A stretch of 64,000 bases of DNA from an uncultured Thermococci archaeon (GTDB lineage Archaea; CAYQAE01; CAYVLA01), in the NCBI GenBank assembly GCA_964549615.1, contig CAZJVP010000020.1, forward strand, positions 64,001 through 128,000. The letters run 5' to 3'. The notes under the pieces were generated by a model, which was not told the origin of the DNA, did no database searches, and saw only the letters and a program-made list of their open reading frames with translations. This document shows positions 18,082 to 54,788 of this stretch, one piece after another. Every line of letters begins with the position of its first letter. Position 1 is the stretch's first letter. A program made the position numbers and the translations under genes.

Positions 18082-19341
18082 ATGGACAACCTGCGCTCAT
18101 CTGTGCTGATTACTCGCACCTCCTCGAACCTACAAGCAATCCTTGCGATGGTCGTTTCCTCGGCTATCTTCTGCGTGTTCCCTGCCCCGGGACTGGAGGA
18201 TGGTCGGATCGGCGTCCTCTACGTCGGCTGCGTAGCGCGCTCGCAGCCCTTCTGGATGATGAGATCCGATCCCCTGTTCAGGATGCAATTCGTGCAGGCA
18301 ACGATCCGCGACTTCATGATGTATGGGCCGATGCCTGCCAAGACAGACGCTGACGTGCACAGGATGGTTAGGCTTTACATGCCACGCACCGACCGGGAGC
18401 TAACGGAAAACTACGATGCAATCGTCCTCTCCGAGGCCAACGTGGATGCGGTTGGTCCCCACATCGACAAGCTGGCCCGAGCCGTCTCCGAGGGGGGCCT
18501 CGGCCTCGTCATGGCCGGTGGCTGGCAGTCGTTCGGAGCTGCCAGCTCCTATCACCCGTGGAGCGAAACCTCGATTGGACGACTCCTTCCGACCGAAGAC
18601 ATCGCCGGAACCTGGGATGAGTCCGTGTTTCAACGCCTAGTGATCGACAGGCCCGATCACGAGCTGATGAGCAGCGTTCCATGGCAGTCGGGCGATCCCG
18701 CTTTGGCCGGCGGGATATGGCACCACAACCGGGTCACCGTCAAGCTAGGCGCCGATCAGCTTGCGCATGTGGTATCGGGCTCAGGCCACGAGGACCCCCT
18801 CATGGTCACATGGAGGATAGAGACCGGGCCCCGGACCTTTGCGCTGACAAGCGAGTCATGCCGCCTTCCCCTGTGGATCTACGCCTACGACTACGTCAGC
18901 AACCTGATGATCTTCCTAGACGAGCGGCCGGTCCCTCAGGATGTGAACCTCGTTCACGCCGCGAGGTCGAAGATGCTCGAGACCAAGACAAGAAGGTCGC
19001 TTCTTTCTTCCCTCCTCGATTTCTGTGAATCATTTGGAGCGAACACCCGCAGTATGATGTCTAGGCTTGAGAAGATGGATGAGATAATTGCCAGCGCCAC
19101 CCCCAGGTATCTTGAGCTTCGTTTCGACGATATGATGGAGACCTACCGCCGGGTTGGCGAGATCCTCGACGATGCTGAGGAGGAGGCCATCAAGCTCAAG
19201 AACCGAACCTTGCTCTGGGTCTACCTGATCGAGTGGCTTGCGGTGAGCGGAACGGCGGCGGTCTGTGGATTCCTGCTATGGTCGCTGATGTTGCGTCGCA
19301 GGTTCTACAGGGAGGTTCAAACCACAAGGCTCGCCAGGTAA
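18082..19341 (+). CDS. Family A copy 1: membrane-anchored GATase1-like surface protein
   Basis: Signal peptide, GRIGVLYVG, RLYMPRT, YDAIVLSEA, GLGLVMAGGWQSFG, DFCESFGANT, TM LLWVYLIEWLAV..SLMLRRR. Confidence 0.8.
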   Translation: MDNLRSSVLITRTSSNLQAILAMVVSSAIFCVFPAPGLEDGRIGVLYVGCVARSQPFWMMRSDPLFRMQFVQATIRDFMMYGPMPAKTDADVHRMVRLYMPRTDRELTENYDAIVLSEANVDAVGPHIDKLARAVSEGGLGLVMAGGWQSFGAASSYHPWSETSIGRLLPTEDIAGTWDESVFQRLVIDRPDHELMSSVPWQSGDPALAGGIWHHNRVTVKLGADQLAHVVSGSGHEDPLMVTWRIETGPRTFALTSESCRLPLWIYAYDYVSNLMIFLDERPVPQDVNLVHAARSKMLETKTRRSLLSSLLDFCESFGANTRSMMSRLEKMDEIIASATPRYLELRFDDMMETYRRVGEILDDAEEEAIKLKNRTLLWVYLIEWLAVSGTAAVCGFLLWSLMLRRRFYREVQTTRLAR

Positions 19342-19657
19342 TGGACCAACACGGAAATCACCCCGGCAACAAAAGAAGGACGATGGCCGCGAAGCGTCAA
19401 TCCCCCTCTTGGGGCGGCCAAGTCGCTGGACCCGAACATACTCAGACTGGATTCGAGTTAACCCCAGCCGCTACCTTTAGGCTTAGACCCTTTTGGGCGC
19501 ACCCAAAGCCTTGATGGCAGAACCGCGGCAAACATCACCGAGGCGCCGATGGCTCGTTGCGCGACCCCGAAACGGTACGAGATGCCTTCAGGCTGCTGCC
19601 CGGCAGCGGGGACGGAACAGATAAGAGCATTGCAGGGAGGCGGAGAGCAGTGGTAGG

Positions 19658-20788
19658 ATGGCTTTGGAGCTGTGGATGCATGGCATATCGGCACAGGACC
19701 CGCAGGCCTGCCTGGAAAGGCTTCACGATCTTGGGTTCTCGGCCGTGGTTCTAGGCACCGACCAACGCCAGTTGGCCGCAGCCAAGAAAGTCGGGCTGCG
19801 TGCATACGCGTGCACCGGAACCTTCTCCAGATCCAAGGAATTCCGGGACGAAAGCTACCTTGCGATAGACGTCGAGGGAAGCCCCCGCGAATGGTTTGGG
19901 TCAACGTGCCCAAACCGAGGTGCGGTGAGGGACTTTAACCTCTCCCAGATACGGGATCTGGTGACTAAGACCGATGCCGACGGAGTCCTCTTGGACGGCT
20001 GTCGCTTTGCCTCCCCGGCCTCGGGCCTAGAGGCATTCTTCACATGCTTCTGCCCGACCTGCGAGAAGAAGGCCCAAGAGATGGGCTACGATTTTGCGAG
20101 GATGAGGAAACAGATCAAGACGATCTACAGGATGCTTGCTGACGGCCGGCTCGGCAAACGACCCGTGGACATGAACCCCTTCCTCTTGCTTTCATCGATC
20201 TCGGTCTTTCCCGCACTTGGCGACTGGATCTCCTTCAGGACGGAGTGCATAATCGAGCACTTTTCAAGCGCCTCGGAGCTGGTCAGGGGGGCGGGCGCCA
20301 AGATGGGCGCTTACATCTTCACTCCCTGCCTGTCGCCGCTGGTCGGACAGCGCTACTCCAGCCTGGCTAACCTGTTGGATGTGGCCTCCCCCATGATCTA
20401 CAGGAACTACCCCGAGGGCGAGGGTCCTGCATGCCTGAACAAGGAAGCCGCGACCCTTGCCCGGTTTCTACGTCGGGGCGGGCTGAAGGACCGCAATGCG
20501 GTGGAGATCGTGAACCGGTTCCTCGGCTTGTGCGAGGAGGACAAGACCATATCTGGCGTGGATAGGGAGATCTCGTTGGAGTCCATCGAGCGGGAACTCA
20601 CAAGGACCGTGGTGTACCTAGGCGGCCGGCCGAAGGTTGTGCCGATACTCTACCTCGGGGATGAGCTCGTGGAGAACTGCGTCCAAGCCGCATCGTCCGC
20701 TGGGGTGGACGGAGTCAACTTCTTCGTCTACAAGGATGAGTGGAGCGGCGTCGTGGAGAGGATCTCCCAGTGCGCGCATCCGAAGTGA
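19658..20788 (+). CDS. Putative glycoside-hydrolase-like TIM barrel (GHL10/DUF187-like)
   Basis: TCPN..AVR, DGVLLDGCRF, CFCPTC, DVASPMIY, GVDGVNFF. Confidence 0.55.
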   Translation: MALELWMHGISAQDPQACLERLHDLGFSAVVLGTDQRQLAAAKKVGLRAYACTGTFSRSKEFRDESYLAIDVEGSPREWFGSTCPNRGAVRDFNLSQIRDLVTKTDADGVLLDGCRFASPASGLEAFFTCFCPTCEKKAQEMGYDFARMRKQIKTIYRMLADGRLGKRPVDMNPFLLLSSISVFPALGDWISFRTECIIEHFSSASELVRGAGAKMGAYIFTPCLSPLVGQRYSSLANLLDVASPMIYRNYPEGEGPACLNKEAATLARFLRRGGLKDRNAVEIVNRFLGLCEEDKTISGVDREISLESIERELTRTVVYLGGRPKVVPILYLGDELVENCVQAASSAGVDGVNFFVYKDEWSGVVERISQCAHPK

Positions 20789-22008
20789 GTGGGTTCACAG
20801 CCAGGACCCACGTAGAACGTTCAGCCGCCGGCCTGTTGGCGGTCTGCATGGGATTCCTCCTTTCCGTCCCCTTATGTGCGGCGAGGAGCGATCCTGCGAC
20901 GGGACGGGTGAGGTTGATCTACTTCGGAGACCCGATAGGTGCAAGCCCCTTCCCCTTCATGATGAACGAGCCGCTCCTCGCACCTGCAGCCGTGATGGCC
21001 TGCAAGATGTGGTACCCCTACGAGACCATACGCAAGAGCATGCGGATCTATGCGCCGCGCACCTTCGAGGCGTTGGACTCGTCGTACGACATGATCATCC
21101 TCAGCGACGCCAACGTGCTGAGCTTCGAAACAAGGCACCTGGACTGGTTCTCCCATTTCGTGGCCGATAAGGGCGGAGGGCTCGCGATGATCGGCGGGTT
21201 CGAGTCCTTCGGGGGCCAGGGCTACTTGTCCTGGGGTCCGACGCCGGTGGGCGATGTCCTGCCGGTCGAGTGCGTGGCCGGAGGCTACAACGCCGAGGGC
21301 CAGATAATCATCGTCCAGCCGGATTGCCCCGTGGTCTCCAACCTCCCATGGAACACCTTGGGCCCGAGCAACTACCTTGGGGGAAATCGGGTCACGCTCA
21401 AGACGGGATCTGAGCTTGTCGCCAGGTTCTCGGACTCAAACCCCCTCTTTGTATGGTGGAAGTGTGGAAAGGGAAGGTCGTACGCGATGGCCGGTGACTG
21501 GACCCCGGCCGGGGGAACGCAGTTCATGAAGTGGGATTACTATGGGGACTATGCGGTGAACGTCGTCCTATTCACGGCAAGCGAGGAGGTCCCCGCCGAT
21601 GTAGAGATCATGCATTCGGTCAGAGGGATCCTTCGCGCCTATGGAGAGACGAAGGGCTACCTGTACTCCCTTATGGATTTTGCCGAGAAATTCGGCGCCA
21701 GCATGAACGGGATCGAGCGAAGCATCGGCGAGGCCGAACTGGAGGCCTCGCGTGCCAGGTCCCTCTATATGTCCTACGATTTCCATGGCGCCGCTTCAGC
21801 CGCCGCGGAAGCCGTGGCGATGCTGGAGGCTGCGTTGGATGACGCCGTCCGCGCAAAGGACAGCGCAATGCTTTGGGTATTCCTCGTAGAGTGGTTGGCG
21901 GTGATCTCGACTTGCATGGTCTCCGGCCTGGTGCTCTACGAGTTGATGATCGCGCGGCGGCTGCTCAAGCCAGCCCCATCGAGCATCTTCACCAAAGGCA
22001 TGTCCTAG
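20785..22008 (+). CDS. Family A copy 2: membrane-anchored GATase1-like surface protein
   Basis: ARSDPATGRVRLIYFGD, RIYAPRT, YDMIILSDA, GLAMIGGFESFG, GKGRSYAMAGDWTPAGG, DFAEKFGAS, MLWVFLVEWL. GTG start overlaps the previous stop. Confidence 0.85.
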   Translation: MSGFTARTHVERSAAGLLAVCMGFLLSVPLCAARSDPATGRVRLIYFGDPIGASPFPFMMNEPLLAPAAVMACKMWYPYETIRKSMRIYAPRTFEALDSSYDMIILSDANVLSFETRHLDWFSHFVADKGGGLAMIGGFESFGGQGYLSWGPTPVGDVLPVECVAGGYNAEGQIIIVQPDCPVVSNLPWNTLGPSNYLGGNRVTLKTGSELVARFSDSNPLFVWWKCGKGRSYAMAGDWTPAGGTQFMKWDYYGDYAVNVVLFTASEEVPADVEIMHSVRGILRAYGETKGYLYSLMDFAEKFGASMNGIERSIGEAELEASRARSLYMSYDFHGAASAAAEAVAMLEAALDDAVRAKDSAMLWVFLVEWLAVISTCMVSGLVLYELMIARRLLKPAPSSIFTKGMS

Positions 22009-22237: not shown

Positions 22238-23434
22238 GTGAGAGAAACCGCGGTTGCCGCTGTGTGCCTGTACCTCGCGGCAGCCTCGCTTGGCCCGACG
22301 GGTCTCGCGGCGACCAACGAGACGATCGCGAGGCAGCTCATGACCCAGCTGGGGAGGTTCGGGCCGTCCTATCCCGACTCACCAGACAGACACGACGCCC
22401 TTCTCCAGATCGACAGCCTCTTCCTGAACGATAGCCTTGGACCGCTCCGGGCGTTGGTCAAGGAAATGATCTCGACCGCGTTGTCCGACATCGTGGGCTA
22501 CCAAGGATCGGCCCCAAGGGTGTGGTACTTCTGGAACATGGGCTACATCGTAAAGGCGAAGGGCCAGGTGCTGGGGTTTGACCTTGCCGAGCTGCAGCTC
22601 GCACCGCTCAACGCTGAACAGAAGAAGCTGCTCGGCCAGAACCTGGACGTACTGTTCGTCTCCCATGTGGACAATCCGCATATAGACAGGGACCTTGTGT
22701 CGTACATGAGGGCCGAGTCGTTCGTCGTCTGTCCGGCTGAGGACGTCTCCTTCTTCGATACCGTGTTGGACAGGAAATGCGCGATCGTTGGCATGAAAGC
22801 GGGGGAGAAGCGTCAGGTCGGCTCCACGTCCGTGGAGGCTTACCCCGGTGACCACGGCGCCGGGGGACCCAACATGCGCTGTTACTTAGTATCAATTGGT
22901 GGAACCAAGCTCATGCAGACCGGCGACCAGCGCACCGTTGCGGAGTGGATGAAGGAGGTAGGCAGGAAGTCGCTCGACGTTCTCATGATCAACCCCCTTT
23001 GGGAATACAACTGGACGGTGGAGGCGGTCAGGACCATGAAACCGTCCTGCGCGCTGCCCGGAACGATGTACGATATGTCGCACGAGAAGGAGACCTGGCA
23101 CGGATATCCCTATGCCTTCCGGCTCAGGGAGGACGTGGGGCCGAACGTGTTCCCGATCTTCTTTGGGGAGAGGATATCGATCCCGACGTCGTCCTCGGAT
23201 TCCCTTTCCTTCGTGCTAATCGGCCTCGTTGCGGCAGCCGGCGTCGCGGTAGCGTATGGAGCGGTGGCCCGGAGGAGGAGAACGCCCGGCGCGAAGCTTC
23301 CCAAGCCAGCTGCGGATTTGATGTGCCAAAAGAGGTACGTTCCGGAGCTTTGCGTGACGTGCAGGCACTACGTCGTGAAGGGCGGCAAGATCCACTGCTC
23401 GAAGCACAACATCGCCCTCGACTCCGAGACCTAG
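22238..23434 (+). CDS. Secreted MBL-fold (UlaG-like) protein with TM anchor and cytoplasmic Cys4 tail
   Basis: Signal peptide, NMGYIVK..GFD, LDVLFVSHVDNPH, QTGD, TM, then CQKRYVPELCVTCRHYVVKGGKIHCSKH. Confidence 0.8.
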   Translation: MRETAVAAVCLYLAAASLGPTGLAATNETIARQLMTQLGRFGPSYPDSPDRHDALLQIDSLFLNDSLGPLRALVKEMISTALSDIVGYQGSAPRVWYFWNMGYIVKAKGQVLGFDLAELQLAPLNAEQKKLLGQNLDVLFVSHVDNPHIDRDLVSYMRAESFVVCPAEDVSFFDTVLDRKCAIVGMKAGEKRQVGSTSVEAYPGDHGAGGPNMRCYLVSIGGTKLMQTGDQRTVAEWMKEVGRKSLDVLMINPLWEYNWTVEAVRTMKPSCALPGTMYDMSHEKETWHGYPYAFRLREDVGPNVFPIFFGERISIPTSSSDSLSFVLIGLVAAAGVAVAYGAVARRRRTPGAKLPKPAADLMCQKRYVPELCVTCRHYVVKGGKIHCSKHNIALDSET

Positions 23435-23435
23435 G

Positions 23436-24767
23436 TCAGTCCTCAAAGGGGATGGGAAGCTTGTGCTTGGAGCAGTAATGACTTCCGGCCCTTATCGTGT
23501 TGTATCTGCAGAACGGACACAGTTCTTTGGCGGGCTTTCCCTGGCAGACCTCGTATGGCCTCTTCTTAGCCCTTCCCGCTTGGGCCGTTCCTTCCTTGCG
23601 TTTCCGGCTCCTCACGACCCAAGGCGAGACGACCCCCAGGACCAAAACGATTGCAACCGCAACATAGAGGAGTGGAATCCCGCTGCCTTCAGGCTTGGCT
23701 ATCTCGCCCCTGAATCGCGTGACCCCGGCGGATGTGGCAAACCAAACGTAGGCACCGTCGACTGCAATGTCACGGACTTCGCTGGACGCAAGGCCCTCTG
23801 ACCTCCTGTAGACGCCGATGCCGCCCCGTCGTCCGATGGCCGTGACTCCGAAAGTCAAGCTCCCGGCCCATATCCTCGAGTTCGTGGCGACGGACCCCAC
23901 CGAGTTGTCCGCGAGTCCTGTGGACTTGTCGTAGGTGACGATCGAGCCGTCTTCAGGATCGTACCGGCACAACCCTCCCGCCCCGGTGCCTATCCAAAGG
24001 AACTCGTCATCTGCGGCCAGCGCCAGGATCCGACTGTCCGAAAGGCCGTCGCCGATGCTGACCTGCTTCTTGAAGCTCAGGGAGGCGCGGTCGAAGCCGA
24101 GGACTCCGTTCGCGTTCGTCCCGAACCATATCATCCCTTTCAGAACCGCCACCGCGCTCGTTGTCTTCTCTGGCAGCCCCGCCCCGCCGATGGTCTGGAA
24201 CGAGGGGATCTCTGCGTCGAGAGAGGCCCGTGCTCCGCCGCCCGAGGTTGCTATGTACAGGTACTCCCCGTCGCTCGCTAGGTCGGCCACGCGGTTGTCG
24301 GGCAGACCGTTCTCCGTCGTGTAGGACTCCCAGGCACCTGATCTGTACCTAAACAGCCCGTCACCGAAAGTTCCCAGCCAGACGCCTCCCTTGGCGATAT
24401 GTATGCATACGACCCTGGTCGCGAGGCCGGGCGGACTCATGGCAGTCCAGGTCCCGCTGGACGCAGCGAACCTTGCGACCGCGCCGGCCATCCCAGCCCA
24501 GACTTCGCCCTTCGAGGCCGCTATGCTGAACACGTTCTCGTCCGGCAAACCTTCATCGCGGCCAAAGCTTGTCCACGTTGCTTCCTCTGTCTGCGCATCG
24601 CAAGACGGGGGAGAGAGCGTGAGGACTGCGATTATGCAGGCCAGCCCCGCCGCTACCGTTCCTCGGCTTTGAACGTAAGCCGGTAGACCACAGCGATCGC
24701 CACCAAGCCGAGCGCGGTGAACAGCGCCAGACGAATGATCCTTCTCTGTGAGCTCTTCTTCCTCCAC
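23436..24767 (-). CDS. Two-component-regulator-type (Reg_prop) beta-propeller protein with TM anchor and cytoplasmic Cys4 tail
   Basis: Repeats GLPDENVFSI / GLPDNRVADL / GLSDSRILAL / GLADNSVGSV / GLASSEVRDI with WxGT, then TM and CQGKPAKELCPFCRYNTIRAGSHYCSKH. Start uncertain (GTG 24767 has an upstream GGAGG). Confidence 0.8.
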   Translation of the reverse strand: MEEEELTEKDHSSGAVHRARLGGDRCGLPAYVQSRGTVAAGLACIIAVLTLSPPSCDAQTEEATWTSFGRDEGLPDENVFSIAASKGEVWAGMAGAVARFAASSGTWTAMSPPGLATRVVCIHIAKGGVWLGTFGDGLFRYRSGAWESYTTENGLPDNRVADLASDGEYLYIATSGGGARASLDAEIPSFQTIGGAGLPEKTTSAVAVLKGMIWFGTNANGVLGFDRASLSFKKQVSIGDGLSDSRILALAADDEFLWIGTGAGGLCRYDPEDGSIVTYDKSTGLADNSVGSVATNSRIWAGSLTFGVTAIGRRGGIGVYRRSEGLASSEVRDIAVDGAYVWFATSAGVTRFRGEIAKPEGSGIPLLYVAVAIVLVLGVVSPWVVRSRKRKEGTAQAGRAKKRPYEVCQGKPAKELCPFCRYNTIRAGSHYCSKHKLPIPFED

Positions 24768-25675
24768 TCCGATGCCTCCTTGGCGAGTTCGGCCTTCTTC
24801 CGCTGGAACGCATCGAGGCTTGATTTCAATGCTTCCATGCGTTGCTGCGAGGTAGTTCTGCCCCTTTCCGCTGTCCATCTCAGGCAGCTTTTCAGCAGTG
24901 CCTGGAATTCCGGGTTGTAGACGACCCCGGAGTAGTCGTCGGGGCCTCCCCGCTCCGTCAGGCCGAATGCGGGGAGCACTACAGACCGGCCCGCGTCCTC
25001 ATAGGCTATCACCGCCGGCACCATCCCGTCCTCATAGGAACTCTTGGCCTCCTGGGTCTTGTAGACCACGGCCATCGTGCCCACGGATGGCTTGGGAGGA
25101 TCCCTGGCTTTGGTCTCGCCCGCCAAGCTTGACCAGTAGAGCCTGACATCGCTGAAGAAGATCTGGTCCGGCAGCCCGGCGGCGATGGGATGGGTTGGGT
25201 CGCTTTTCACGTAAGTGTGTCCCATGGCTATCTTGCCTCCCACCACGGTCAGACGACCTTCGCTTGTCGCATTAGCAAAGACGGGCAGGATGGTGCGCGA
25301 GAGATTGGTCGCAAATGCAACTTCGTTGATCCCGATCAAACCTACGCCTCTATCGAACAGCTCGATCATCGCCGCCTGCAGTTCAGCAGGGATCAATGCC
25401 GAATAGATCGATATGATTCCGACATAGGTCTGGGGGAAGGCTAGGTACTCGACGAATTCGCCCAGCGAGCCCACAACGACTGGCTTGAGGCCCAGCGAGG
25501 TATCGTTTGCGATGATTTGGGCGAGAGCCGATGCATAGGCCCCGAAGATGTTGCTTTCACCGGGCAGCTGCTGGTAGCCATTCGCGCAGAGGATCGGCAC
25601 GATTCCTTCCTGGCCCGTCGCGATCGGAAGGCAAAACGCCAAGATGATGAATGCGACGAACCGCGTTCCCGGCAT
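24653..25675 (-). CDS. Family C copy 1: secreted ThuA/GATase-like fold protein with helical stalk and C-terminal TM
   Basis: Signal peptide, FDRGVGLIG, HPIAAGLPD, VIAYEDAGRSV, PEFQALL..RW, TM. Paralog of 50633-51625. Confidence 0.7.
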   Translation of the reverse strand: MPGTRFVAFIILAFCLPIATGQEGIVPILCANGYQQLPGESNIFGAYASALAQIIANDTSLGLKPVVVGSLGEFVEYLAFPQTYVGIISIYSALIPAELQAAMIELFDRGVGLIGINEVAFATNLSRTILPVFANATSEGRLTVVGGKIAMGHTYVKSDPTHPIAAGLPDQIFFSDVRLYWSSLAGETKARDPPKPSVGTMAVVYKTQEAKSSYEDGMVPAVIAYEDAGRSVVLPAFGLTERGGPDDYSGVVYNPEFQALLKSCLRWTAERGRTTSQQRMEALKSSLDAFQRKKAELAKEASEWRKKSSQRRIIRLALFTALGLVAIAVVYRLTFKAEER

Positions 25676-25677: not shown

Positions 25678-26559
25678 CTACACCTCCACGTAACCTCCGT
25701 TCTCGATGATGTGTAGCAGGATCTTGTCCGCAGCCAACTCCCCATCGATCTCGAACTTGACCATGTGAACCAGGTACTTGCCGTAGAGCTGCTTGGCGAA
25801 CAGCTTGGGATAGGCACTGTATGCTGAGCGGATGCGGTAGACTATGGAGACCCGGTCATTCCTGGCAAGATCGGAGAACACGATCCTGCCCTGTCCAGGG
25901 GCCTTGCTAGCCGGCAGCGCGCCGGCCGCAAGCGCGGCCTTGTCCTCCGCGGACACGTACGTCGTCTTGTTGGCGTTCACCGTGATCTCGAGCCCCTTCA
26001 GGGAGATCTCACGCATGAAGAAGTAATCCGAGACCCCCTCGTAGAGGCCTTCGATCATCTTGGACTTGTTCAAGACGACCGCGTAGACGGTCGGGTAGTA
26101 GGATGACCCGCTCGGCGGAAGAACGGGGTTGAGAGCCGGACCGAAATCGTAGACCACCATGGTTCGCCTCCCGCCCCCGATGTCCACATCGGACACCGTC
26201 ACCTCCGGCTTGTAGCCCAGATCCTGCACCAGGCCAAGCTTTCCACTGATCTGTTCGATCACCTCGCCGGCCCTTCGCGGATCGTCCACCTTTGGCGAAG
26301 CCTCGGTGAAGTTGGGCCGAACCGGCATGAGGAAGGAGAACGACACAGCAACCTGTTTGAGCGGCTCCCTGCAGATGAAGGCGACCGAGTACTTGTCCTG
26401 ATCAAGCTCCGATACGCCCGCGAGAGCTTTCAGCGGAAATGATTGATCTATCACGTTGATGGGCGTCTCTATCTTCTCTTTGATCAGGTAGAGGGAGATC
26501 AGGCTCCCCACTATCAAGGATATGACAAGGACGCCGATGAGCCGCCTCTCGACCTTCAT
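25678..26559 (-). CDS. Family B copy 1: N-terminally anchored hypothetical protein
   Basis: Single N-terminal TM. Aligns by eye with 51622-52470 (SFPL/EYPL, YEG..YFF..EISL/FEG..FF..ERSL, APGQGRIVF/APADGVLVF). Confidence 0.7.
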   Translation of the reverse strand: MKVERRLIGVLVISLIVGSLISLYLIKEKIETPINVIDQSFPLKALAGVSELDQDKYSVAFICREPLKQVAVSFSFLMPVRPNFTEASPKVDDPRRAGEVIEQISGKLGLVQDLGYKPEVTVSDVDIGGGRRTMVVYDFGPALNPVLPPSGSSYYPTVYAVVLNKSKMIEGLYEGVSDYFFMREISLKGLEITVNANKTTYVSAEDKAALAAGALPASKAPGQGRIVFSDLARNDRVSIVYRIRSAYSAYPKLFAKQLYGKYLVHMVKFEIDGELAADKILLHIIENGGYVEV

Positions 26560-35815: not shown

Positions 35816-35835
35816 CGGGCAACGGGGGTTGGCAC

Positions 35836-44742: not shown

Positions 44743-44862
44743 CCCCTGGCAGCTTTCCAGTTGATTATCGTTAGGGCAACCTTCGGGCAGCGAGCCGCGA
44801 GCCGTGAGCCGTGAAACCTTTATTAGGCCTAGTCCGTGCTGCCTCGCACGCGGGTGATCGCG

Positions 44863-45648: not shown

Positions 45649-45657
45649 GGCGATTAC

Positions 45658-46620
45658 GTGCCGGTCAGAGTCGGATTCGTCGGCGTAGGCGGAATAGCGC
45701 AGGGACACCTCAACAACGTCAAGAGGAATCCCCTGGCCGAGCTCGTCGCCGTCTGCGACATAGTTGAGGAGAAGGCGAAAGCGGCGTCCGAGAAGTTCGG
45801 CGCCAAGCCCTACACCAACTTTGCGGACATGATCAAGAGGGAAGATCTGCAGGCGCTCTACGTCTGCGTCCCGCCGCACGCACACGGCAAGGTCGAGTTG
45901 CTCGCGGCTGAGAAGGGGATATCCCTTTTCATAGAGAAGCCGCTGGCCTCCGACCCGCTCACCCCGGAGAGAATCGCAAAGGCCATCTCGAGAAAAGGGG
46001 TGATCGCAAGCGTGGGTTACAACTGGCGTTACAGCGACATGACGGACAGAGCCCTCGAAATCCTTAAGGACAAGACCATCGGACTGGTCCTAGGATACTG
46101 GATGGGCGGGCTGCCCGGGGTAGCTTGGTGGCGGGTGAAGGCCCAGTCGGGAGGCCAGGCCGTTGAGCAGACGACTCACATCTTTGACATGGCGAGATGT
46201 CTCGCCGGCGAGGTCAAGACCGTCTATGCATCGGCTGGGCTCCAGTGCATGAAGGACGTGGAGAACCTCGACGTGGAGGACGCCTCGGCCGTGAACCTCA
46301 CCTTCAAGAACGGGGCGCCTGGAGCCATAATCTCGACCTGCATGCTCAGCCAAGGCTATCGGGTGATGATCTCGGTCTTCTCGAGGGACCTAGCCTTGGA
46401 GCACACGCAGGGGACCCTCAGGATCATGACCCCTGCGGAGGAGAGGTTGCTCAAGTCAAGGGTCGACCCATATGCCAAGGAGGATGAGATCTTCATCGAG
46501 GCAGTGTCGACGGGAAATGCCTCAAAGATAAGGTCGCCCTACGACGACGCGCTCAAGACCCACCGGGTAACGATGGCGGCAAACCGCTCCATGCGAACCG
46601 GTAGGCCAGTGGCACTGTAG
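45658..46620 (+). CDS. Gfo/Idh/MocA oxidoreductase
   Basis: GFVGVGGIA, FIEKP, SGGQAVEQTTHIFD. Confidence 0.92.
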   Translation: MPVRVGFVGVGGIAQGHLNNVKRNPLAELVAVCDIVEEKAKAASEKFGAKPYTNFADMIKREDLQALYVCVPPHAHGKVELLAAEKGISLFIEKPLASDPLTPERIAKAISRKGVIASVGYNWRYSDMTDRALEILKDKTIGLVLGYWMGGLPGVAWWRVKAQSGGQAVEQTTHIFDMARCLAGEVKTVYASAGLQCMKDVENLDVEDASAVNLTFKNGAPGAIISTCMLSQGYRVMISVFSRDLALEHTQGTLRIMTPAEERLLKSRVDPYAKEDEIFIEAVSTGNASKIRSPYDDALKTHRVTMAANRSMRTGRPVAL

Positions 46621-47785: not shown

Positions 47786-50485
47786 CTACTCCAATTCGGC
47801 GTGGAGGTCTTCAAAAAGCCCCGTGAAGGCGTTGATGTACTCCTTTCGCTGCCCGTCCTCTGAGGCGTAGGTGACCTCATAGTAGGGCATATGCACGAGG
47901 CGGACCCCCTCCAGTCGATATCCGGGGTAAATGGTTCGCACCAATGCTTCCACGCCGTCACGGTCGTATCTCATTTCGAGGACGCGTTCGGCCCTCAGCA
48001 CGGCGGTGCTGGGAAGCTGCCCCTTGACCGAGTCCGGCCTGGGAGGGAACCTGATCCCCTTGGACAGGGAGCCTCTGAGGCGCCCCTTCCTGTCCTCGGA
48101 AAGTTCTATGATCCCCTTGTCCGAAAGCTCCGTCATGGCCTCGCGTATCTTGGCCCTGCCCATGCCAAGCTCCGCCTCGCATTCCTCGGGCATCCTCCCA
48201 TGGATCACGCAGCGCAAGACGCCAAGATGCCTTTCGCCAAGCGAGGTCAGGGAACGAAGGTTGCTTGACCTCCTGAAGTCGCGGAAGTCCACGACGAGCT
48301 CCCTAAGGTATGCATCGAAGAGCACCGTGCACCTGACCACAAGCCTGCCCGTCAACCACCCCTGCTTCCGAAGCGACAGGGTCGATTCGAACATCGGGCA
48401 GTGAACCAACTGAACCGACTCTATGAACTCCTTTGGCCTGCCCGTCCAGCTCTTTCTTATTCTCTCGAGTGCCATGCCCTTGGCGGAGTCCAGACGGAGA
48501 ACCACCGGGTAGGACTCGACCTCCTGACCGTGCAACGCCCGCGCTTCTGCTGTGTGCGAGCGCACCTGGGATGTCTGGACAGCTGACGGTTCCGGCTTGG
48601 ATTCAGCCCCAATCGTAGGTTCCATGAGGCTCGAGAGGCCGACCTCTTCCTCCTGGGCCACCTCTTCCCTCTCAAGAGCCGGGAACTCCTCCGTCACCTC
48701 TTGCGACTCCGGACCGCTGACTATTAGGTGGTCCGCGTAGTATCTCGCCTTCCCGCGGCCGGCATGCTCCGAACCCAGGATGATCCTAGGAACCTTCTCC
48801 CCCTGCTCGGGCTGTTCCCCGGCGTCCGCACCAGACCCTTCACCCGCCTCCAGATCGCTCGGGAGGCCGGGTGGACCAAGCGGAAGTTGGAGCTCAGCCT
48901 CAGCGGGTTCTTGGGAAGCCGGCTCATCCGGGCTTGCGGAGACTATCTCCAGCGGCTCGGCCGGGGTTTTCTCCACGGTCGCGGAAGGCGGGACGCGACC
49001 CGCCTCCTCGCCCCATATGCTGGGTATGCTCGAAACTCTCCCTTCCTGGGTGGGGCCCGGTCCCGCCTTGCTCGATGTGTCGAGAGGCGGAAGTTGCTTC
49101 TGCGGCACTGACTCCTTTCCCGAATGGTGGGTGAGCCTGGGCCTTATCTGTATAAGGAAGGCGCGCTGCTGCGTCTTCTGGTCAGCAAGGATGGCAAAGC
49201 CGGACGGTATCCCTCGGACGAAGTCGGAATCGGCCAACTGGGGAGGAAGCTTGGCCGGCACCCTCCGCAGCAGCGCCGCTATATCATCCTCCAACCCGAG
49301 GCTGTGGCCGATCAGGATGTCCACCTGCGACAGTATGTCATCATCCGTCGCAGCCGGCCTCTGCGTCGCGAATACCAAGGCACAGCCAGGCTTGCGCCCG
49401 ACCTTGGCGTACTCGATGAGGGGCTTCGATGCCGCAGTCAACCCCCTCCTTGGGATCAGAAGGTGGGCCTCGTCTATCATGAGCCAGGTCACGGGGATTC
49501 TCGGACCCTCGCCAGCGAGCCCAAGCTCCTCCCTGCGGGCATTCTCCATCCTCGCTTGCAGGATCTTCTTCGCTATGATCCCTACTATCAACGCCCTCAT
49601 CTGGTTCTCAAGCTTGGGGTGGCTTACGTCGATCACCGTCACCCTGTCCCAGACGGAGATTTCCTCTATGGGGGTTCCCTCCCGGGAAAAGATGCCCCAG
49701 TTCTCGGCGGCCTTGAGTCTCGCGATCACGCTGCGCCGGGTCGAGCGCGCGTATCCCTTCTCCTCCGAACAGAGCTCGATATCCCTATCCATGACGTCGA
49801 TTATGTCCTCGATCGTGTAGTCACTGCCCTTCCCCGGGATGAATTCGACCTCGTTTAGGCCCTTCCTGACCTTGTACCCTTGCCTAACTTTCTCCAGCGC
49901 CTCACCTATGAGCAAGCCTTGAATCTTGAACCTGTCCAGGCCGAAGACCAGGCACCATTCCTCCGAGGTGAGCTCGGACGGCTTAATGGAGAAGGACCCA
50001 TCCAGAACGTCGTTACCTTGTCCGAAGATCCCGAGAGGCCCGAGGATGCGGACGTTATCCAAGGCTTGGGGCTTGAGCCCCCATCTTTCCAGCTCGCTGA
50101 TCTCCTTCCGGTTCTGGTTTTCCTTCTTCAGCGACCAGTAGATGCCTATCGGATCGACTATCACGGTCCCGATGCCGATCCTGGTTCTGCATAGTTCCTC
50201 GGCAATGACGCCCAGGGTGTAGCTCTTCCCGCCGCCCCTCTTCCCGCAGATGAAGATGATGTGGGGAAACTTGGCATCGACATAGACGCGGTACCCGTGG
50301 AAGGACTGCCCACTTGCCTGTTTCTCGCATACCGCCCCGATGTCAAGGAGGCCCTCGAATCCCTCCCGCTTCTGCTCTTTCTTGGTCCTCCCGACAATGA
50401 TCGCCTCCTTTCCCGGGTCAAAGACCGGGTCGAGGCGCTCGTCCACTATGGGCCGGAAGCTCGTGCTAGCGTAAAGTCTTCCCAA
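47786..50485 (-). CDS. HerA/FtsK-like (DUF87) ATPase with long acidic linker and C-terminal wHTH-containing domain
   Basis: Walker A GKRGGGKS, IVDPIG, Walker B LMIDEAH, GRK.G..LVFATQRP, Pro/Glu-rich linker. Confidence 0.85.
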   Translation of the reverse strand: MGRLYASTSFRPIVDERLDPVFDPGKEAIIVGRTKKEQKREGFEGLLDIGAVCEKQASGQSFHGYRVYVDAKFPHIIFICGKRGGGKSYTLGVIAEELCRTRIGIGTVIVDPIGIYWSLKKENQNRKEISELERWGLKPQALDNVRILGPLGIFGQGNDVLDGSFSIKPSELTSEEWCLVFGLDRFKIQGLLIGEALEKVRQGYKVRKGLNEVEFIPGKGSDYTIEDIIDVMDRDIELCSEEKGYARSTRRSVIARLKAAENWGIFSREGTPIEEISVWDRVTVIDVSHPKLENQMRALIVGIIAKKILQARMENARREELGLAGEGPRIPVTWLMIDEAHLLIPRRGLTAASKPLIEYAKVGRKPGCALVFATQRPAATDDDILSQVDILIGHSLGLEDDIAALLRRVPAKLPPQLADSDFVRGIPSGFAILADQKTQQRAFLIQIRPRLTHHSGKESVPQKQLPPLDTSSKAGPGPTQEGRVSSIPSIWGEEAGRVPPSATVEKTPAEPLEIVSASPDEPASQEPAEAELQLPLGPPGLPSDLEAGEGSGADAGEQPEQGEKVPRIILGSEHAGRGKARYYADHLIVSGPESQEVTEEFPALEREEVAQEEEVGLSSLMEPTIGAESKPEPSAVQTSQVRSHTAEARALHGQEVESYPVVLRLDSAKGMALERIRKSWTGRPKEFIESVQLVHCPMFESTLSLRKQGWLTGRLVVRCTVLFDAYLRELVVDFRDFRRSSNLRSLTSLGERHLGVLRCVIHGRMPEECEAELGMGRAKIREAMTELSDKGIIELSEDRKGRLRGSLSKGIRFPPRPDSVKGQLPSTAVLRAERVLEMRYDRDGVEALVRTIYPGYRLEGVRLVHMPYYEVTYASEDGQRKEYINAFTGLFEDLHAELE

Positions 50486-50632
50486 CCGCGGCGGCTCCCG
50501 CGTCTCAAAAGATTGGCAATCCTCTTATATTTTTTCCAAGATCCAGCGCGCAATGGCAGCCACGATTCGCGCGACAGGGACCGCCGGTTGGCTACCGTCA
50601 CGACCTAAGAATGGGGCCCTCGACGAGCGAGG

Positions 50633-51625
50633 TCAGTGGTCGGCCGATTCCCCGCCTTTCCGATGGGCCAAGAAGCTCCACCGAATCATCGCCGCGATGC
50701 AGATCAGGCCCAAGGCCCAGAAGATGCCGAGGAGGACCATCCTGCGCATTCTCTGAGATCGAGCCCTGCCTTGGGAGCGGGCGAGAAGCTCATCCTGCGT
50801 CTTCTCCCGTTGGGCGACCACTTCATGGTAGTTCGCTGAGTACGCATGGAAGCGTACATTGCCCTCGCAGACCCAGCGGTAAGCATCGGCCAACAGAACC
50901 TGGAACTCGGGCTGCTCCAGGAGCTTGCCGTAGTAACTCTCCGCGGTGGGCTGTTCCCTCAAGAAAAGGCCCGTGAAGGTGGCCGACCGTCCCCCGCGCT
51001 CACCCTCATAGGCGATCACAAGCGGTGCCCCGGTCTTCTTCTCCCGGAACAGCACCGTCCTTTTCCCTGGCAGAGCTTGCACATCGACGAGCTTCTTGTC
51101 CTGGTCACTGGCATAGGCGAAGAACTGCCCTACGACGTCGAAACTGTCCGGAAGCCCGTCTGCGAAGCCTTCCAGGCGATCGGCCCTCACGTACTCATTC
51201 ACGTATGTGCCAGCCTTCCTCACGCCGCTCCCCGTGGTGTTGCCGAAGGCCGGGAAGACCAACCTGGCCAGGTCGCCCACCTGCGTCTGCCACGAACAAC
51301 CGTAGAAGCCGATGGCCGAGCCGCCGCTGCGGAAGTACTCGGTGACTGGTTCGACCAACGCCGTCAGATCGCCGGGGGCAACGGAGGTCAGGATCAAACA
51401 CTTGACGTTAGGGAGCGCTAGGAGGGACCCCACGAGGCTGGGATCGCTGGCCACGATGATCTCCTCCCCCTGAACGCACGAGGCGTTGAGAGCTGCCGCG
51501 ACCCCTTGCGCAAGGACCCTCATGCTCCCGTCGTAAACCACGATGATTGGCCGGAACTCTGCACAGAGGGATGGGGATATGAGTAAAAACGACGCCGCCC
51601 AGAGACAGAACGCTGCGCCCCTCAC
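50633..51625 (-). CDS. Family C copy 2: secreted ThuA/GATase-like fold protein with C-terminal TM
   Basis: Signal peptide, YFRSGGSAIG, PAFGNTT, GLPD, VIAYEGERGGRS, PEFQVLL..RW, TM. Confidence 0.7.
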   Translation of the reverse strand: MRGAAFCLWAASFLLISPSLCAEFRPIIVVYDGSMRVLAQGVAAALNASCVQGEEIIVASDPSLVGSLLALPNVKCLILTSVAPGDLTALVEPVTEYFRSGGSAIGFYGCSWQTQVGDLARLVFPAFGNTTGSGVRKAGTYVNEYVRADRLEGFADGLPDSFDVVGQFFAYASDQDKKLVDVQALPGKRTVLFREKKTGAPLVIAYEGERGGRSATFTGLFLREQPTAESYYGKLLEQPEFQVLLADAYRWVCEGNVRFHAYSANYHEVVAQREKTQDELLARSQGRARSQRMRRMVLLGIFWALGLICIAAMIRWSFLAHRKGGESADH

Positions 51626-52470
51626 TGCTTCACCCCCCTCTGCATCGGGTCCATCAACACGGCCTCCAGCGCGCCGTCGCAGTAGCCGGTGACCAGCTCA
51701 ATCAGGTATCTCTCGGGCGCCCAGGTCACGATCTGACGGAGGCCGTCTTCCGGGATATCGATCGTGAAGGATACCGAGAACCTTTCGTCTCTCTTAACGG
51801 CCTCGAAAACGAGGACGCCGTCCGCGGGCGCCTCCGATATGCGCGGCAATTGTTTCAGCATGGTGCCGGGCCTGACGTACTCCTTCTTCTCAGTGCCCCG
51901 AGAGATCGTGAGGTACTGCAGGCTCCGCTCCGGCTCCATGAAGAACCCGGGGTAGCCCTCAAAGTAGCGCACCTGGTCGCCCCTCACGAGCATCGCAAAG
52001 ACGAGCGGCAGCTTTGACATCATGGACCTATTGTTGAATGCCTCAAGGAACCTGGAGAAATCCGCGATCGTGGCTCTGTACCTAGTCCCGTTCAGTTCGG
52101 CGTCCCTTTCGATGATTTCGGCATATCCTCCCAACGCCGCCACGTAGCTTTCGAGCTTGGCAACGTTAGGTAGGTCACGTAGGTCCACCGATCCGGAGGC
52201 GTTCGCGCCAAGATCCTTCTCGTACAGGGACGAGAAGCGCAGCTCCACCCTCTCGAAGTCTCTCGTTGCCATGAAGGAAAACGACAGCTCGCTGTCAAGA
52301 CCCATGGCTTGCGCGCGCTTGACCAGCGCCAGGGGATACTCGTTCGCGAGCACCAACAACGCGTCCTCTTCCTTCGGCTTCACGATCGTGGCCACAAGCA
52401 GCGTGGAAAGTATCACGGATGAGGCGATTATGGCCCCAAGACGTGGATCAATCCTCGGCAAGTTCGCCAT
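51622..52470 (-). CDS. Family B copy 2: N-terminally anchored hypothetical protein
   Basis: Paralog of 25678-26559. ATG 52470 with AGGAGG upstream; overlaps the family C start. Confidence 0.7.
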   Translation of the reverse strand: MANLPRIDPRLGAIIASSVILSTLLVATIVKPKEEDALLVLANEYPLALVKRAQAMGLDSELSFSFMATRDFERVELRFSSLYEKDLGANASGSVDLRDLPNVAKLESYVAALGGYAEIIERDAELNGTRYRATIADFSRFLEAFNNRSMMSKLPLVFAMLVRGDQVRYFEGYPGFFMEPERSLQYLTISRGTEKKEYVRPGTMLKQLPRISEAPADGVLVFEAVKRDERFSVSFTIDIPEDGLRQIVTWAPERYLIELVTGYCDGALEAVLMDPMQRGVKQ

Positions 52471-52492
52471 CCTCCTAGACCCGAACCCTAGC

Positions 52493-53725
52493 TCACACCC
52501 TCTCAAGCCGCGTGAGTCGAACTTCGGCATACATCTTCCTACGGACCATCAGCGTATAAAGCAGGAAGCCGCACAGCAGGAACGTTCCCGTCACGGAAGC
52601 CCACTCGATCAGATAGACGTTGAAGAGCGCCTTCCTCGCCAGCGCCCTCGCCTCGTCCACCTTCTCGTTGACGAGCCTCATGGCGTTTTCGTAGGCCTCC
52701 AGCGCGGATGCGTATTCGCCCGAGAAATAAAGCCTGTCCGCCTCAGCCCTCGCTCTATCGCAGTCGATCGCCGCAGCCGTAACGGCAGCGAAGTTGCCCC
52801 CAAAGCTGTCAACGATCTCAACCATCGAGTCAAGCGTCGAACGGACGTCCCAGTACTGCCTCGCCCTGCGCCTTATCATGTAGACGACGTCAAGATCGTC
52901 AGGAAGCCTTCTTCCCGCGGTGAACATCACCATGTTTATGGCGAAGTCCGGGTAGTACTCCCAGGTCATGAAGATCATCCCCCCGGCAGGAGTCCAATCC
53001 GTGGTCATCGAGAAGCCCCTTCCCTTGCCGACATCCCACCAAGCCAGGTGCGGTATCCTTCCGTAGCTGAAGGTCTCACCCTCGGCGACTAGGTGCGAGG
53101 TTTGCTTCAGCACCGTGAGGTGCCCCTCGCTGAAGACGCCCTTCGTCCCCAGCGTATCCCACGGCAGGCTCTTTCCGAACTCGCCCTCGCGGTCAACGAT
53201 GACCATCCGGATTGATTGGTCGCAGTACCGGTGATCCAGCATTTCGACCGGCAGTACCTCGGCCACGGTCGTGGTGCTCCAGCTTGGCATCACCGTTCCC
53301 CTCCCCTCGTAGCTCTCGGCGCCGCCTATCATGATGATGCCAAGCCCGCTATCTGTGACGGCCTCGCTCATCCAGCTTATCTCAGCTGGCCTGAAGACGT
53401 CCTTGTTCGCATCGCTGAGGATTATGACGTCGAAGCCGTTCTTCAGCCGATCGGGAGTTCGTGGCATGTAATACCTCATCTGCTTGTTGATGAGATCATA
53501 GGTGGCGTGGAAGGTGCAGGCCGTGACGGGGGTGGCGACGAAGCTCGGCTCCAGTTTCATATAGGGAAAAGGGCTTCTGGCGGTGATCGCATCCCCCAGA
53601 TACAAGACTCGAATCTTGCCGGTCTGGGGATCGGACCTCATCTCCCTGGCCTGGCTTCCGCTTGTCGCCAGCATCAGGACACATGCCAAAGTAAGTCCGG
53701 TTGCCAGACTCCTTTGCACGGGCAT
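52493..53725 (-). CDS. Family A copy 5: membrane-anchored GATase1-like surface protein
   Basis: RSDPQTGKIRVLYLGD, RYYMPRT, FDVIILSDA, GLGIIMIGGAESY, DWTPAGG, DSFGGN, VYLIEWASV. ATG 53725 with TATATA upstream. Confidence 0.85.
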   Translation of the reverse strand: MPVQRSLATGLTLACVLMLATSGSQAREMRSDPQTGKIRVLYLGDAITARSPFPYMKLEPSFVATPVTACTFHATYDLINKQMRYYMPRTPDRLKNGFDVIILSDANKDVFRPAEISWMSEAVTDSGLGIIMIGGAESYEGRGTVMPSWSTTTVAEVLPVEMLDHRYCDQSIRMVIVDREGEFGKSLPWDTLGTKGVFSEGHLTVLKQTSHLVAEGETFSYGRIPHLAWWDVGKGRGFSMTTDWTPAGGMIFMTWEYYPDFAINMVMFTAGRRLPDDLDVVYMIRRRARQYWDVRSTLDSMVEIVDSFGGNFAAVTAAAIDCDRARAEADRLYFSGEYASALEAYENAMRLVNEKVDEARALARKALFNVYLIEWASVTGTFLLCGFLLYTLMVRRKMYAEVRLTRLERV

Positions 53726-54279
53726 GGTTTGGGACGGATCCTGGATATATATCCAACCCCTGAAGCCCGGAACCCAAGCCCGTCCGAAGTTGCAAGGAAA
53801 GGGCGCGATCAACCCGGTAGGTTGCGATTTGCCGAAGCCGGCTGCACATCGAGGTTGTCCGCCATGAGGTTCTGCCCGGATGCTTACACAGTCCACATTC
53901 CGTACGTACCGGGGAATAGCAGACTGTCCGGATTACAAACTCCCTTTGGGGAGGTTAGGTAGGGCGTCTCTGCAAACGGTTGCGCCTGGACCTGAGGATC
54001 CGAGCTGGCGGTTGCCCCGGCAAGAGGTGCACCACGCGGCACATTGGCTTCGACCTTCTTCCGACGTATCTCATAAGGGCTTAGCGGCCATTTGCCTTAG
54101 AGTTCCTCGATGGACACCTCCAACTTGGCAATTCTCGCAGCGTGGGTGAACGGTGACCCACGCCTAAGGGGCTGGCGACCGATGATTTCCTACGTGACCG
54201 CCACAGGCGTGCCGATTCTTGTGCCGCAGAAGTTGCGGACGAGTTCTGCGTCTACTGGAGGGTGTTGCCCTCCGTCCGT

Positions 54280-54788
54280 GGCCTGAACGCCACAGGACCG
54301 ATATGATGGCGAACGTCGTGCTGTATTCGCTCGACCTGCCGTTGGTCTTAGACGTTCGCGCAAGACGCGAGGCCGGCTTCCCATGTCAGACCTCAGAGCC
54401 CAGGAATCGCTGGTGGCCTCCATGATTGAGTACGCCGAGAAGTTCGGAGCCAACACCGTTCCGCTATCCGAGCGGGTCTCGAAGTCGGGCGCCGAGATGG
54501 GAACCGCCAAGCAGCACTATCTTGATCAGGAGTACGACAGCGCGATCACATCATGGACTCGATAACCTCGGCGATGGCCGAATAACCAGGGAAGCCGTGG
54601 ATTTGAAGAACGCGGCGATGCGGTGGGTTTTTCTGTCCGAGTGGCTGGTCGTCACGGGGACTTTCTGCATTTCCGGCATCTCTGTGTGGAGCCTTATGGT
54701 TCGTCGGAAGGCCTACAGGGCCGCCGCCACCACCCGCGTTTCCCCTGCGTACAGAGGCAGGGGGATATGGTCTGAGGAGAAGCGGTAG
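54280..54788 (+). pseudogene. Family A pseudogene (C-terminal part, two frameshifts)
   Basis: Three frames give DMMANVVLYS.. / SMIEYAEKFGANT..HYLDQEYD / DLKNAAMRWVFLSEWLVVTGTFCISG..SLMVRRK. Confidence 0.8.

Follow-up and report, generated by a model that had tools for sequence, protein, structure and literature searches.

What are the proteins encoded by a group of paralogous genes that recurs along a single archaeal locus, and what might they do at the cell surface? The question is raised by a 64,000-nucleotide stretch of contig CAZJVP010000020.1 from an uncultured Thermococci archaeon (hereafter the window), for which an earlier note, made from the sequence alone, had described five genes and one pseudogene, designated here as family A, each intact copy being thought to carry a secreted GATase1-like domain, a helical stalk and a transmembrane (TM) segment with a conserved Glu. 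These genes provide several of the predicted surface proteins of the locus. The proteins are already present in the databases as unnamed hypothetical proteins, and the domain in question, PF07090, is a curated family without a function; what is new is that this known domain occurs within a strongly conserved architecture not described before, and next to defined operon partners, and no paper on archaeal family A or on its anchor was found in the full-text literature. With respect to function, we tentatively favor the reading that these proteins are non-catalytic, probably glycan-binding surface subunits that would dock through their conserved TM segment and tail, while recognizing that this reading has clearly less than an even chance of being correct.

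Five intact copies and a relic

Numbered by position, the copies are A1 (18082-19341, + strand, 419 residues), A2 (20785-22008, +, 407 residues), A3 (29990-31207, +, 405 residues), A4 (32667-33899, +, 410 residues) and A5 (52493-53725, - strand, 410 residues), the last being the first gene of the A5-X-B operon described below. All five are intact in the list of open reading frames (ORFs) of the window; A2, A3 and A5 belong to the canonical subfamily, and A1 and A4 are divergent. The start of A2 is a GTG that overlaps by 4 nt the stop of the upstream gene, in agreement with the 407-residue form in the database. All ten pairwise BLASTP comparisons are significant over nearly the full length (391-429 residues), with identities of 27-42% and E-values from 5e-43 to 1e-107; for the divergent copies the ranges are 4e-52 to 9e-66 (A1 against the others) and 5e-43 to 1e-56 (A4 against the others). 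A failure of the copies to align, which the earlier note had named as grounds for abandoning the family, is therefore not what is seen, since no pair has an E-value above 5e-43. A TBLASTN search of the window with A1-A5 returned the five copies, the relic and no further match.

The relic (approximately 54303-54788, + strand) retains the C-terminal third only and is read in at least two frames. TBLASTN recovers it as two pieces, 54344-54562 and, in a different frame, 54573-54743, which span positions 284-345 and 353-406 of the 409-position hidden Markov model (HMM) of the family, with a stop at 54563-54565 between them. No trace of the N-terminal two thirds was found in a six-frame HMM search (--max) of positions 53701-54800, and a search for repeats around the relic gave only short repeats at the level of chance.

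The motifs that had been listed as common to the copies are shared to different degrees. RxYxPRT is present in all five, and the motif (D/E)(F/I)xxxF(G/N)(A/G)(N/S) in all five and in the relic, while GLxMIGGxES is well kept only in A2, A3 and A5, its site reading MAGGWQS in A1 and the motif being absent from A4; likewise, GKGR..DWTPxGG is kept in A2, A3 and A5 and not in A1 or A4. The TM motif of the type W/N-V-(Y/F)-x-x-E was recognized, as claimed, in every copy (19216-19302, 21874-21960, 31073-31159, 33759-33845 and 52535-52621, in the order A1 to A5) as well as in the relic (54624-54710).

A GATase1-like head without a catalytic triad

Against the Pfam profile PF07090 (GATase1_like, gathering cut-off 27 bits) three of the five copies score above the cut-off (A2 69.6, A3 49.4 and A5 32.1 bits); A1 remains below it with 20.3 bits and A4 gives no match, the membership of these two resting on their full-length similarity to the other copies. 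Among 33 family A members, 27 match PF07090 at E<=0.01. The profile of the family in turn matches three solved PF07090 structures of the PDB with E-values of 2e-20 to 5e-20, over about 180 residues (profile positions 84-269 only): STM3548 (2GK3), STM1381 (3SOZ) and a protein from Planctomyces limnophilus (3RHT), to which the domain is thus homologous. Because of these Pfam and PDB matches, we infer that the head of family A has a flavodoxin-like GATase1 fold, in keeping with the GATase1-like ectodomain that had been proposed. By comparison, matches to ThuA (PF06283) are absent from the five window copies and were obtained for one of the 33 members (E 3.9e-06), and one relative in the database carries a precomputed PF06283 assignment.

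The solved proteins and family A have in common the segments P-x-T...YD-vvILSD, G-GL-MIGG-x-x-S-F, AEVLPV, PLLV..G.G+ and W.Y...N. The stretch that reads MIGG(Y/W)(L/E)SF in the solved structures is aligned to MIGG-x-E-S in family A, and probably represents the GATase1 elbow. As the earlier note had remarked, no catalytic Cys is visible at this site: no Cys is invariant, no column of a 161-sequence alignment has at least 60% Cys, and the solved PF07090 proteins also lack a Cys-triad signature in the aligned stretch. In this alignment the sole column with at least 60% His is position 292, which lies outside the PF07090 domain. With neither Cys nor His of the triad in place, a catalytic class I glutamine amidotransferase was ruled out. 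Nine aromatic columns of the ectodomain are conserved at 75% or more, and a clade-based search for specificity-determining positions returned one column.

The earlier note had also considered that the full length might map to an already characterized family. What we find is that the first two thirds correspond to PF07090, which is itself uncharacterized, and that the C-terminal third matches no known family in Pfam, NCBIfam or PDB searches. The solved PF07090 proteins are only about 250 residues long, and two of them (2GK3 and 3SOZ) were deposited as cytoplasmic; in all three the matched stretch ends at or near the end of the chain, leaving no room for a neck or a C-terminal TM segment. Family A differs from them in that it possesses a signal peptide and the conserved C-terminal third as additional parts, as well as motifs of its own, RxYMPRT and DWTPxGG. 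PF07090 is thereby placed in an extracellular, membrane-anchored context, and it gains operon partners.

Topology, neck and membrane anchor

In all copies but A5 a hydrophobic 19-mer with a Kyte-Doolittle (KD) score above 1.6 is present at the N terminus, and in all but A4 at the C terminus, the homologous C-terminal TM motif being found in all five; the last 18 residues, after the TM helix, have a net charge of +4 to +6, and a strongly hydrophobic N-terminal segment is present in 113 of 123 full-length relatives. From the hydrophobic segments at both ends and the positive charge of the C-terminal end, family A proteins look like type I membrane proteins with their bulk outside the cell. The number of N-X-S/T sequons in the five copies is 0, 0, 0, 0 and 1; in our judgement, such a near-absence is unusual for an archaeal surface protein.

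Between the ectodomain and the membrane there is a neck of about 90 residues, in which helix formers account for 52% of the residues (35% in the ectodomain) and Pro plus Gly for 5.7% (15.9% in the ectodomain). Its hydrophobic periodicity is 3.5-3.6 residues, with an interruption at a conserved DFxEKFGAN turn. No insertion or deletion of 5 or more columns occurs past position 259 of the 161-sequence alignment, which indicates that the length of the neck is fixed. The last helix of the neck appears to be continuous with the TM helix.

The consensus of the anchor is KDRALxW(V/I)YxxEWLxVTGTxxxxGxxLWxLMVRRRLYREVxTTR. In terms of information content, the juxtamembrane and TM region (2.76 bits per column) and the tail (2.84) exceed both the ectodomain (1.66) and the neck (1.65): the conservation of the TM segment that had been noticed in the window thus holds for the family, with TM and tail being its best conserved part. 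Such a gradient, in which the anchor is more conserved than the domain it carries, implies a conserved membrane partner or assembly. The anchor motif is found in 144 of the 150 best representatives of the family in a protein-cluster library (see below), with the acidic position occupied by Glu in 138, Gln in 5 and Asp in 1; in the 161-sequence alignment the corresponding column is 96% Glu and is the top-conserved acidic position of the whole protein. As this Glu precedes the RRR cluster by about 20 residues and is embedded in an aromatic belt (W at -5, Y at -3, W at +1), we would place it at or near the outer interface of the membrane, and not halfway across the bilayer. The conserved tail continues for 10-20 residues past the basic cluster.

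In the window copies, the third positions of codons for identical residues agree in only 5-13 of 11-25 cases, and the longest exact DNA identity between any two copies is no more than 14 nt. The conservation of the anchor is therefore at the protein level, and does not derive from gene conversion; on the same third-codon and DNA-identity comparison, recent duplication of the copies was rejected as well.

Range of the family and age of the paralogs

In a library of 1.84 billion representatives of clusters at 50% identity, the HMM of the five copies recovers 2294 representatives at E<=1e-3, 550 at E<=1e-10 and 272 at E<=1e-30; the best 150 are mostly 380-430 residues long and match end to end. 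A word-based search returned 24 relatives, all with a precomputed PF07090 assignment, the only names among them being "uncharacterized membrane protein". We also scanned the genomes of 185,579 species, one genome each, starting from a 9-sequence alignment and with two peptide patterns only, which makes the resulting count a lower bound. At least 7 full-length loci were found, all of them in three metagenome-assembled genomes (MAGs) of Hadarchaeota, with 2-5 copies each; Hadarchaeota are widespread subsurface archaea that have barely been cultured. The same scan returned three bacterial loci (L008-L010, Chloroflexi and Alcaligenaceae) with a partial PF07090 match inside proteins of about 1000 residues, in which von Willebrand A (VWA) domains either interrupt the domain or are combined with it; here the match to the HMM extends from about 88 to 264 only, and neither the neck nor the TM segment of family A is present. 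We take these bacterial proteins to be membrane-associated, extracytoplasmic components of Bat/MoxR-like systems. When a homologue (P0012) was used as query in the Atlas, 29 of the 30 nearest clusters were of the same kind, and the four family rows shown were 100% archaeal, although in each cluster a phylum is given for just 3-4 of the members. Overall, the family appears to be restricted in range, and the suggestion that it is lineage-specific agrees with these results, as all 7 full-length loci are from Hadarchaeota and the Atlas rows are archaeal.

Are the paralogs of the window the product of a recent expansion? In a tree of the 161 sequences a different clade holds each of A1, A3 and A4, while one broad clade includes both A2 and A5, with different nearest relatives. 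For every copy, a protein from outside the window is more similar (A4 85%, A2 63%, A5 61%, A1 59% and A3 48% identity) than any other copy of the window, the closest window pair being at 42%, and A2 has a syntenic ortholog at 63% identity in the locus L001, from a Candidatus Hadarchaeota MAG. Sequence comparison thus identifies the family A paralogs as ancient subfamilies with their own orthologs, and not as recent duplicates. The differences between subfamilies are chiefly in the MIGGxES, LPV and DWTPxGG segments. In the clade of A1 the canonical motifs are replaced by GGW(E/Q)SF and LLPTED (A1 itself reads GGWQSF and LLPTED and, like its clade, is without DWTP); in the clade of A4, LxEFxxW, FPAD and GWDNIP take the place of MIGGxES, VLPV and DWTPxGG. 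All clades keep RxYxPRT, W165, D270, N274, DFxEKFGAN and the anchor. Since the alternative motifs are conserved within their clades and the remaining motifs are kept universally, the divergent copies represent stable, functionally constrained subfamilies and not genes in decay. The birth-and-death model advanced for the family holds only in part: there are pseudogenes (the relic of the window and, possibly, a frameshifted copy in L001), but no sign of recent births, given the 42% identity of the closest pair, the separate clades and the syntenic ortholog of A2.

Gene context and operons

Besides family A, the window contains two paralogous pairs of genes, named here X and B. X2 (51622-52470, - strand), which comes after A5, encodes an N-terminal TM segment and about 250 residues of no known family; its ATG at 52470 is preceded by GGAGG and is 22 nt from the stop of A5 (31 nt with the alternative TTG start at 52461). 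B2 (50633-51625, -), after X2, encodes a protein whose N terminus is signal-like and which has a charged helix-like segment and, at its C terminus, a TM segment; the GTG start of B2 overlaps the stop of X2 (GTGA). The second pair consists of X1 (25678-26559, -), which follows an FG-GAP gene and has its own AT/T-rich upstream region, and B1 (24653-25675, -), after X1; the gap in this pair is 2 nt. In L001 there are likewise two X-B pairs, 6822-7670/7667-8659 and, on the - strand, 20247-21146/19204-20244. Directly upstream of X-B in L001 a family A gene is split in two frames (5520-6578 and 6493-6822), which may reflect a frameshift pseudogene or an assembly error.

Two other genes are interlocked with family A. 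Between A3 and A4, and overlapping both, there is a gene for a membrane-anchored protein resembling glycoside hydrolases (GH-like; 31204-32697, +), with a signal-like N terminus, a C-terminal TM segment, a Cys-rich tail and weak Pfam matches to GH39, GH10, GH42 and GH53 (E 4e-8 to 2e-4); the stop of A3 overlaps its start at 31204, and the start of A4 lies within its end. Upstream of A2 is a DUF4015-like, putative glycosyl-hydrolase-like gene (19658-20788, +), whose match to PF13200 (E 0.0016, 18 bits) is below the cut-off; the pair formed by this gene and the A2 ortholog recurs in L001 (8919-10049 and 10001-11248), and the window and L001 share the order DUF4015-like gene, A2 ortholog, Cys-tailed protein, beta-propeller, B, X. 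The two are thus syntenic, and the archaeon of the window is Hadarchaeota-like.

AT-rich boxes are found at -24 to -28 ahead of A1 and A5 (for A1 at -24; for A5, ATATATAT at -27 relative to the ATG at 53725), while no promoter-like box is present within 90 nt of A2, the GH-like gene, A4, X2, B2 or B1. Taken together with the gene overlaps, this placement of the boxes points to A5-X2-B2, X1-B1, A3-GH-A4 and DUF4015-like-A2 as likely operons. A family A gene is directly followed by X in 4 loci (A5/X2 of the window, L004, L005 and L001), and the order X-B is seen at 4 loci, two of them in the window and the other two in L001. Matches to A5-type proteins and to X also fall on contigs of identical length (25841, 5210 and 3159), and these three coincidences suggest that the same A-X pairing exists on further contigs.

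The sequences of X and B say little about their nature. X has 14 relatives in the database, all unnamed or "hypothetical", and no match in Pfam, PDB or PADLOC; its scores in the Atlas, 0.81-0.86, are below the 0.9 line and have the value of a lead only. B1 has a weak match to ThuA (E 0.002) and B2 has none in Pfam. In profile searches, no PDB entry matched X or B at E<0.01, NCBIfam gave nothing relevant for A, X or B, and a comparison of A and X by hhalign yielded a probability of 0.1%. PADLOC returned no match for A, X or B, on which basis a role as a defense system was rejected. Downstream of B2 there is a gene for an 899-residue HerA/DUF87-like ATPase (47786-50485, -), with weak PADLOC matches to HerA and mad8 and its own AT-rich box at -50; a link of this ATPase to A5-X-B was rejected in view of the separate promoter-like box and of the fact that it does not adjoin B in L001. 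The A-X order resembles that of GldG/ABC_transp_aux and DUF4340 proteins, where an anchored GATase1-clan ectodomain protein precedes an N-terminally anchored protein of about 300 residues. No match to PF09822 or DUF4340 was obtained at E<=0.1 or E<=5, and no ABC transporter gene is found among the ORFs of the window or adjacent to A-X.

A possible function and its alternatives

In the reading that we tentatively prefer, the head of each family A protein would bind a ligand without acting on it, the ligand being most likely a glycan and differing between subfamilies; all paralogs would be docked, by way of the juxtamembrane helix and its interfacial Glu, the TM helix and the RRRLYREV tail, to one membrane partner or into one oligomer that they have in common, of which X and B may be further subunits. 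A precedent by analogy for the use of a GATase1-like fold in this way is provided by CBM87, the N-terminal domain of Agd3 from Aspergillus fumigatus (PMC7229062). The genomic context that speaks for glycans includes the A3-GH-A4 and DUF4015-like-A2 gene groups, and the FG-GAP/lambda-carrageenase-like propellers and sulfatases that are recurrent neighbors of family A in the window, L001 and L007. A DUF5696 protein and sugar-oxidation genes also recur near family A in these three. If the heads do bind glycans, family A would be an example of polymer capture by Hadarchaeota and would extend the CBM87-type use of GATase1 folds from fungi to archaea.

Several observations weigh against this proposal. 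The glycan context is moderate and not universal: the neighbors of family A in L002, L004, L005 and L006 are URO-D-like, cyclase, cupin and housekeeping genes, and the listed sequence of the L001 sulfatase shows no signal-like N terminus. There is no detectable sequence similarity to residues 141-364 of Agd3, and a sequence search of the PDB returned no Agd3 chain at E<=10; moreover CBM87 is fungal, fused to a deacetylase and not anchored by a TM segment. No candidate for the common membrane partner has emerged. The conservation moment of the TM helix is 0.23, compared with 0.15+/-0.07 for shuffled sequences, a value reached by 14% of the shuffles, and conservation is therefore spread around the helix without a single conserved face. 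X follows only about 4 of the 13 family A genes with readable downstream DNA in the window and the other loci. Homology between A and B is not demonstrable either, the hhalign probability being 8.6%.

It is instructive to compare this proposal with other roles that the same architecture could serve. One is structural: family A could be an envelope component like SlaB of the Sulfolobales, a membrane-anchored stalk or spacer that holds an outer layer or organizes a pseudo-periplasm, with TM segment and neck forming a trimer. According to PMC10903991, SlaB is likewise an archaeal type I protein, in which beta domains are followed by a long helix near the C terminus, trimerizing as a coiled coil, and by a TM helix. 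The plan of family A, in which a signal peptide and a globular head precede a helical region that leads into the C-terminal TM helix, is the same, as is that of the product of gene B; the fixed length of the neck and the 3, 4 and 6 chains of the solved PF07090 entries are also compatible with a stalk. There are differences as well: SlaB has a beta-sandwich head, a single helix of 132 residues, heavy glycosylation (14 predicted sites) and one gene per genome (PMC10903991), while family A has a head that is probably flavodoxin-like, at most one sequon per copy, a neck of about 90 residues that is broken by the FGAN turn and thus not one long coiled coil, and many divergent paralogs per genome instead of one abundant stalk gene; nor was a canopy-type partner seen, though no search was aimed at one. 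We consider this role unlikely. Slightly less probable still is that family A proteins are sensors or co-receptors, whose ectodomain would perceive an extracellular ligand and whose TM segment and tail would signal to a shared cytoplasmic or membrane partner. The conserved juxtamembrane helix, TM helix and 12-residue tail, together with ectodomain motifs that vary between paralogs, are what one would expect of such proteins, and X resembles, at the level of a lead, N-terminally anchored regulators of the YycI/PepSY type; against this, a tail of such length is too short for an output domain, genes for kinases, transcription factors or other signaling proteins are not conserved beside family A genes, and the Atlas scores of X are within the range of shuffled proteins.

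An enzymatic role is more doubtful than either of these. Elsewhere in the GATase1 clan Ser or Cys serves as the nucleophile, and one can imagine an extracellular PF07090 enzyme with an active site other than Cys (the Glu/Ser of GGxES or the Asp of DWTP), acting on a polysaccharide or surface substrate, with the divergent subfamilies as pseudo-enzymes. E155, S/T156, D253 and D270 (94%) are strongly conserved in the canonical subfamily, and family A genes share operons with hydrolase-like genes, but not one of these residues is found universally: at the first site L/E-S stands in the solved homologs and E-A in L004 and L005, and whole clades exchange both motifs and yet remain conserved. Furthermore, no PF07090 protein with a known activity is on record; our own search of the literature on STM3548, STM1381 and the PF07090 structures found no functional study, and a 2026 paper states that none was found for STM3548 (PMC13432705). 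Very improbable, finally, is a role of the conserved C terminus in sorting or intramembrane processing, which the earlier note had raised as a possibility for the stalk and the TM Glu; it would then be a signal like those of archaeosortase, rhombosortase or intramembrane-protease substrates, and would be cleaved or modified with lipid. The layout (a W-V-Y-x-I-E-W signature, a hydrophobic helix and an Arg cluster) is reminiscent of such signals, but the module occurs on family A only (11 of 11 matches in a region search carry PF07090, and 17 of 17 motif matches belong to family A across the window together with 10 loci), and the conserved LYREVxxTR and further residues follow the Arg cluster, so that the basic residues are not at the extreme C terminus. 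It is this confinement to family A and this continuation past the basic cluster that make the sorting signal the weakest of the alternatives; in addition, no NCBIfam model of C-terminal sorting signals matched, and no sortase, rhomboid or S2P-like gene is present in the 57 of 59 window ORFs that were scanned (those at 255-530 and at 24842-25132, the latter overlapping B1, being left out).

Returning to the glycan-binding proposal, a bolder version of it would join A, X and B in a modular, hitherto undescribed glycan-capture apparatus of the Hadarchaeota surface. Its paralogous lectin-like heads of GATase1 or ThuA fold, with a separate specificity for each subfamily, would be carried on necks of fixed length and would all insert, by the same Glu-bearing TM helix and RRRLYREV tail, into one shared membrane partner, next to anchored hydrolases. 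On present sequence evidence we regard this version as speculative and rather improbable. If true, it would be an archaeal counterpart of the bacterial Sus-like or cellulosome-like systems, built on an entirely different fold. In the accessible part of a paper on Hadarchaeota, S-layer, glycoside, extracellular and sulfatase are not mentioned (PMC10811742).

Other features of the locus

A second type of C-terminal module is present in the window and in L001, in which a TM helix and an Arg/Lys cluster are connected by some 40 residues of linker to a terminal, zinc-ribbon-like Cys-rich tail that reads C-x2-C-(R/K)-x-(Y/N)-x7-9-C-(S/R)-K-(H/F/Y). It occurs at 22238-23434 (+), 23436-24878 (-) and 31204-32697 (+) of the window, the last being the GH-like gene, and at 16795-18015 (+) and 18017-19339 (-) of L001. 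Since it is carried by three unrelated ectodomains (one without a Pfam match, a Reg_prop beta-propeller and the GH-like protein), this module is portable, unlike the anchor of family A. The large FG-GAP/lambda-carrageenase-like propellers at 26620-29592 (-) of the window and 449-2140 (-) of L001 have yet another ending, with a P-E-A or S-E-A motif, a hydrophobic helix and an Arg-rich segment; it resembles a sorting signal, and no NCBIfam CTERM model matched it.

Elsewhere in the window, in the regions 35153-36825, 44836-46620 and 14578-15972 (all +), a gene for a cytoplasmic ThuA protein adjoins one for a GFO/IDH/MocA oxidoreductase, a xylose-isomerase-like TIM barrel adjoins a second oxidoreductase, and there is a sulfatase. 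ThuA, the two oxidoreductases, the TIM barrel and the sulfatase together form a gene set for sugar oxidation and desulfation. Just upstream of A1 there is a nucleotidyltransferase/HepT-like toxin-antitoxin pair (16864-17253 and 17246-17692, both +). Two tRNA genes were the only matches of the window to Rfam, at 11208-11300 (+, 93 nt) and 62995-63084 (+, about 90 nt), of a size that allows for introns; ARAGORN calls only the one at 62995-63084, as tRNA-Val(CAC), and the other overlaps the end of the ORF at 10241-11317. Further genes of the window are typically archaeal, as for example those for the CCA-adding enzyme and a DUF2070 protein.

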